From NCBI RefSeq assembly GCF_003334255.1, contig NZ_QOWU01000017.1: 64,000 bases of DNA; one strand, 5' to 3'. Below are positions 1-325 of this stretch, piece by piece (positions within the stretch are counted from its first letter, which is position 1; every line of letters starts with the position of its first letter). A program made the position numbers and the translations under genes. The notes beneath the pieces were generated by a model. It searched no databases, had not been told where the DNA came from, and saw nothing but the letters and a program-made list of their open reading frames with translations. This stretch comes from Escherichia coli (GTDB lineage: Bacteria; Pseudomonadota; Gammaproteobacteria; Enterobacterales; Enterobacteriaceae).

Positions 1-100
1 AGTTATCGTGAGAGTAATTCATCGGCACGTTAAATCATATCAGGCGTAATACCACAACCCTTAAGTTAGCGCTTATGGGGTTTACCCACGCCTTTCCGTT

Positions 101-325
101 ATGCATGGGGCGGTCAAATATCTCGGCTACGCTGATGAACACAGTGCAGAGCCTGATCAGGTGATCCTTATCGAAGCGGGGCAGTTTGCGGTGTTCCCTC
201 CAGAAAAGTGGCACAACATTGAAGCCATGACTGACGATACTTATTTCAACATTGACTTCTTCGTGGCTCCTGAAGTCCTGATGGAAGGTGCGCAACAACG
301 GAAAGTCATTCATAACGGGAAATGA
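101..325 (+). CDS. yeaR: DUF1971 protein YeaR, apparently N-terminally short (74 aa ORF; in-frame stops at 47-49 and 62-64)
   Basis: ORF track 101..325; followed 3 nt later by yoaG as in the known yeaR-yoaG operon; K-12 YeaR recalled as about 119 aa, so the N-terminus is missing or disrupted here. Confidence 0.6.
   Translation: MHGAVKYLGYADEHSAEPDQVILIEAGQFAVFPPEKWHNIEAMTDDTYFNIDFFVAPEVLMEGAQQRKVIHNGK

Follow-up and report, generated by a model that had tools for sequence, protein, structure and literature searches.

Why does the yeaR gene of Escherichia coli appear at the start of this contig as a reading frame of 74 codons only? The stretch analysed, called the window below, comprises 64,000 nucleotides of contig NZ_QOWU01000017.1 (RefSeq assembly GCF_003334255.1), read on one strand from 5' to 3'. 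In its first 325 positions, the listing of open reading frames (ORFs) gives a single ORF in the yeaR frame, which starts with ATG and runs over 101..325 on the plus strand. Upstream of it the frame is closed, since translation of 2..325 meets stops at codons 16 and 21 (TAA at 47-49 and TAA at 62-64), and the other plus frames are closed too, frame 1 by TAA at 31-33 and frame 3 by TGA at 9-11. All of this had been described in the first-pass annotation and is borne out here. The same annotation put the YeaR of K-12 at about 119 aa, and considered that this length might be wrong, that yeaR might be disrupted in this strain, or that a junction with foreign DNA might lie in the first 64 nt. The length was right: yeaR of MG1655 (b1797) is annotated with 360 nt including the stop codon and translates into 119 aa, which refutes the first of these possibilities.

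The first positions of the window almost certainly belong to an insertion sequence, IS186, which has transposed into yeaR and split the gene (Table 1). An alignment to the reference yeaR locus and to IS ends, proposed as a check in the first-pass annotation, proved decisive. When positions 1..340 are aligned to the MG1655 locus, identity to yeaR begins at 77/78 (...TATG/GGGTTTACCCACGCC, the slash marking the boundary), and positions 1..76 have no similarity to the yeaR locus. What they do resemble is the end of an IS186 element, a sequence of 1,339 bp that is bounded by terminal inverted repeats of 23 bp and encodes a single DDE transposase (gene insL). Compared with the copies IS186A, IS186B and IS186C of E. 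coli K-12 MG1655, the 77 bp are the same as the end of IS186A, including the inverted repeat and the start of insL; MG1655 differs only in location, as it has no IS186 copy in yeaR. The 23-bp repeat CATAAGCGCTAACTTAAGGGTTG is present at both ends of IS186A, and also at both ends of the corresponding element in E. coli strain 720632. The insL start codon lies about 55 bp inside the IS186 end, in an element whose single transposase gene encodes 370 aa, and although only seven codons of this gene fall in the window, their translation agrees residue by residue with the N-terminus of the transposase of strain 720632 (370 aa, WP_001300563.1). In related genomes the element is named IS4-like element IS421 family transposase by PGAP. 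The assignment to IS186 draws on the 23-bp inverted repeat, the identity of the element, insL, the target-site duplication and the target motif. In the source genome 77 bp of the copy are readable, the rest being upstream of the window start.

Table 1. Features at the start of the window (positions of the window; strand given where one applies)
Feature	Position	Strand	Evidence
IS186 terminal 77 bp (IS4-like, IS421 family; transposase-proximal end)	1..77	-	77/77 identical to left end of MG1655 IS186A
Start of insL (IS186 transposase) with ATG at 22..20; the gene continues past the window start	1..22	-	22..2 translates to MNYSHDN
IS186 23-bp terminal inverted repeat CAACCCTTAAGTTAGCGCTTATG (reverse complement of CATAAGCGCTAACTTAAGGGTTG)	55..77		exact match
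10-bp target-site duplication GGGTTTACCC, right copy (yeaR nt 113-122)	78..87		flank on both sides in related genomes
yeaR 3' fragment, codons 38/39-119 plus stop, pseudogene remnant	78..325	+	100% identical to MG1655 yeaR from window 77
yoaG, intact; lies downstream of yeaR in the yeaR-yoaG operon	329..511	+	ORF; WP_000513737.1 in relatives, b1796 in MG1655

The suspected disruption of yeaR was therefore correct, with the IS186 insertion as its cause, and the foreign junction that had been listed beside it as a separate possibility does exist, as one and the same event; it was placed wrongly within the first 64 nt, the true site being 77/78, 13 nt further in. The final 13 nt of the IS, at 65..77 (GTTAGCGCTTATG), are free of stops in the yeaR frame by chance only. 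A phage end or another foreign junction is ruled out, as the first 77 bp are exactly the end of IS186.

In MG1655 the sequence GGGTTTACCC is found once, within CCCGGGGGTTTACCCACGCC and likewise within GCCCGGGGGTTTACCCACGCC, at the empty site. The window contains the right copy of the duplication only, and its presence on both sides of the element was read from strain 720632, the K-12 derivative Dam/Dcm, ETEC1730, C41(DE3) and G1/2, where it flanks the IS on either side. Its length is 10 bp, or 11 bp when G77, the terminal G/C of the IS, is counted with the target, and the insertion point lies after codon 41 of yeaR (...RPGVYP/RLSVMHG...). Lee et al. (2016) give 5'-GGGG(N6/N7)CCCC-3' as the target consensus of IS186, with 7 of the 59 recovered sites departing from it by one or two bases and with both orientations occurring (PMC5009759). 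The flanks of IS186A itself, with the 10-bp duplication GGATCACTCC within GGGGATCACTCCCC, have the layout GG/GG-N6-CC/CC, and the duplication at the yeaR site has the same GG-N6-CC layout. On this layout the yeaR target reads GGGG(GTTTAC)CCAC and agrees with the consensus in 7 of the 8 specified bases, one side being CCAC instead of CCCC. Apart from this one base, it is similar to the known IS186 hot spots in the lon promoter, fimA and menC, which likewise lie between a G-run and a C-run and are entered recurrently at the same base pair in both orientations. The only perfect match to the consensus in the window, at 17309..17322 (GGGGTCGGCGCCCC), falls in the msrB-gapA intergenic region by coordinate conversion; it is unoccupied here, and a single such site does not exceed the chance expectation.

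The other side of the element can be seen in related genomes. A 700-bp query taken from the window start finds 100% matches in many complete E. coli genomes, in which the region is annotated as IS4-like element IS421 family transposase, yeaR, yoaG and yeaQ. In strain 720632 and in Dam/Dcm, the gene order is dmlR, leuE, a pseudogene piece with a DUF1971 domain, the IS421-family transposase on the opposite strand, a yeaR piece, yoaG and yeaQ. The upstream piece measures 123 nt in both genomes and is described by PGAP as "missing C-terminus", the downstream piece in the relatives as "incomplete; missing N-terminus", and both are flagged as pseudogenes. On translation the upstream piece would encode 41 residues of YeaR and 19 residues contributed by the IS before a stop is reached. 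From inverted repeat to inverted repeat, the element at yeaR comprises 1,339 bp in strain 720632, in Dam/Dcm and in C41(DE3), the last belonging to the E. coli B lineage, and is identical to IS186A in all 1339/1339 positions; the copy of G1/2 is identical in 1338/1339. The orientation is that of the window in these four genomes, and the opposite one in ETEC1730. The ETEC1730 copy (L004, positions 1186..2523) occupies the same yeaR site with a length of 1,338 bp, and is probably immobile, because it has a 1-bp deletion and carries a transposase gene that the annotation marks as frameshifted.

These observations point strongly to the following course of events. IS186 integrated at the target GGGG(GTTTAC)CCAC, flanked by its G-run and C-run, after codon 41 of yeaR, and this integration duplicated 10 bp of the target, GGGTTTACCC, with insL pointing away from the 3' part of yeaR. 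The gene was thereby split into a 5' piece of 41 codons, located upstream of the window, and the 3' piece that is seen at 78..325, and the 74-aa ORF is no more than what an internal start at Met46 leaves of the yeaR frame up to its regular stop. The source genome presumably has the full IS186 and the 5' piece of yeaR, as its closest relatives do.

The product of the ORF at 101..325 corresponds to YeaR residues 46-119, its start codon being Met46, and direct reading of the 20 nt before this codon reveals no evident AGGAG-like motif. The 3' fragment, the last two thirds of yeaR, comes without the promoter, the ribosome-binding site, the start codon and the first 37-41 codons of the gene. In MG1655 YeaR, the Pfam domain DUF1971 (PF09313) extends over residues 12-96 (E = 7.6e-23), and the insertion interrupts it at residue 41; a single ORF of about 119 aa with the whole domain is missing from the window, the 74-aa ORF having a partial domain. 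Because neither piece has the whole DUF1971 domain, yeaR would be inactivated, and the 74-aa ORF is unlikely to be a functional product. A further ORF of 152 aa, antisense at 35..493 on the minus strand, crosses the IS end, the yeaR fragment and yoaG; it was dismissed, as it is unannotated in every related genome and spans the IS/yeaR/yoaG junctions, and looks like a chance open frame.

The yeaR-yoaG operon is regulated by NsrR and NarL and has a promoter that responds to nitrate and nitric oxide. With the insertion, yoaG is now 1.3 kb further from this promoter, behind an IS that is transcribed the opposite way, and polarity would probably lower its expression from the native promoter. In positions 1..700 a simple consensus scan detected neither a sigma-70-like promoter nor a terminator-like site, a result that leaves transcription of the yeaR remnant and yoaG neither proven nor excluded, and a literature search on outward promoters of IS186 gave nothing specific.

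Other explanations of the short reading frame have to be weighed against the insertion. That yeaR is natively a gene of 74 aa, with positions 1..100 as its normal intergenic region, is excluded, as the gene of MG1655 encodes 119 aa, the uninterrupted site is found in 4,963 of 5,426 complete genomes, and positions 1..76 are IS186 without likeness to the yeaR locus. More attention is due to the idea that an IS-mediated rearrangement, i.e. a deletion or an inversion between IS186 copies, has brought DNA other than the 5' piece of yeaR to the far side of the element. The window starts inside the IS, so the far side is out of view, and recombination between IS copies is frequent in E. coli (Lee et al., PMC5009759). 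However, the insertion is a simple one in all five inspected genomes (strain 720632, Dam/Dcm, ETEC1730, C41(DE3) and G1/2), where the duplication is present and the 5' piece of yeaR lies upstream together with leuE, and both halves of a 121-bp probe for the empty site are kept in each of the 452 genomes in which this site is split. A rearrangement is therefore very improbable. An assembly or sequencing artefact, in the form of a chimeric join at a repeated IS, deserves still less credit and can practically be dismissed: copies of IS elements are classic sites of misassembly, but the very same junction is shared by 255 independent complete genomes, the reciprocal left junction and a two-sided target-site duplication are found, and yeaR::IS186 has also been reported from experiments (PMC5009759; PMC6307192).

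The insertion of IS186 into yeaR, which remains the reading preferred by a wide margin of plausibility, raises the question of how common it is, and a scan of 5,426 complete E. coli genomes gives its frequency. A 116-bp probe for the junction of the window is fully present in 255 of them, and the equivalent probe from ETEC1730, for the opposite orientation at the same site and with the same duplication, in 197. The empty site of MG1655, represented by the 121-bp probe, is intact in the 4,963 genomes mentioned above, and the same probe gives two separate partial matches in 452 genomes, which is exactly 255+197 (5,872 places in 5,420 genomes for this probe in all). A probe internal to IS186 detects 8,484 copies in 2,191 genomes. 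The yeaR site is occupied in 452/5,426 genomes (8.3%), corresponding to about 21% of the IS186 carriers and about 5% of the IS186 copies.

Within the K-12 background three states of the site are found: it is empty in MG1655, occupied in the orientation of the window in Dam/Dcm and ET12567, and occupied in the opposite orientation in CV601. The last strain was read as K-12 from its DmlR allele WP_001061575.1, which is common to Dam/Dcm, and for the O16:H48 mouse-gut isolates among the matches in the opposite orientation the serotype was taken as the sign of K-12. The insertion is likewise present in C41(DE3), a derivative of E. coli B. Because all three states occur among K-12 derivatives, and the insertion also in an E. 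coli B derivative, IS186 has entered the yeaR site on several independent occasions, as is expected of a target-specific IS. The observed frequency, at a target that matches the consensus imperfectly, most likely reflects target preference and nothing else. Alternatively, the frequency at this major natural landing site of IS186 could reflect selection for loss of yeaR-yoaG in addition to target preference, for which fluoroquinolone or nitrosative conditions are hinted at as a possible setting in PMC6307192; I regard this as rather doubtful.

The remainder of the window gives an impression of the strain background. Positions 77..64000 form one collinear BLAST match to MG1655 with 99.98% identity, running from 1,879,837 down to 1,815,913 of that genome (yeaR to katE). 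The differences are 14 SNPs (3612, 4741, 5984, 9436, 17948, 18884, 27206, 30778, 40251, 42435, 61548, 62046, 62515 and 63919) and a single deleted base between astC and xthA, at 47879. Over 25 kb the strain is matched best by G1/2, G6/7 and G8, isolates from human faeces in Germany, nearly but not exactly; in G1/2 the base that corresponds to window position 2 is different. By its sequence the strain is a close relative of K-12, and not K-12 itself. As a side observation, the small RNA ES036 (CssrF) gives two Rfam hits above the gathering score, both on the minus strand, at 63652..63694 (55.5 bits) and 56506..56548 (42.9 bits), which coordinate conversion places between katE and chbG and between nadE and cho, respectively.

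Insertions of IS186 into yeaR have been described before. Lee et al. mention an extra IS186 inside the yeaR gene of the K-12 strain PFM2 (PMC5009759), and Hoeksema et al. (2018) saw IS186 enter yeaR de novo in lines of MG1655 that evolved under antibiotics (PMC6307192). Gene and element are the same as in the window; the accessible text of these papers gives neither an exact coordinate nor an orientation, and the identity of the site is taken from the RefSeq K-12 derivatives Dam/Dcm and ET12567, whose junction is the same as that of the window over 700 bp. The feature is already known, because yeaR::IS186 has been published and PGAP annotates both halves as pseudogenes, and it is a real and ordinary gene disruption.

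For the annotation of this contig it follows that the 74-aa "yeaR" ORF is a pseudogene fragment and that positions 1..77 belong to IS186. The population counts make a modest quantitative point on IS186 hot spots and imply no new biology. Carriers of the allele, among them the widely used laboratory strains Dam/Dcm and ET12567 of K-12 and C41(DE3) of E. coli B, are without YeaR, unlike MG1655, and may express yoaG abnormally, a difference in strain background that is relevant to work on the NsrR/NarL-regulated yeaR-yoaG operon.
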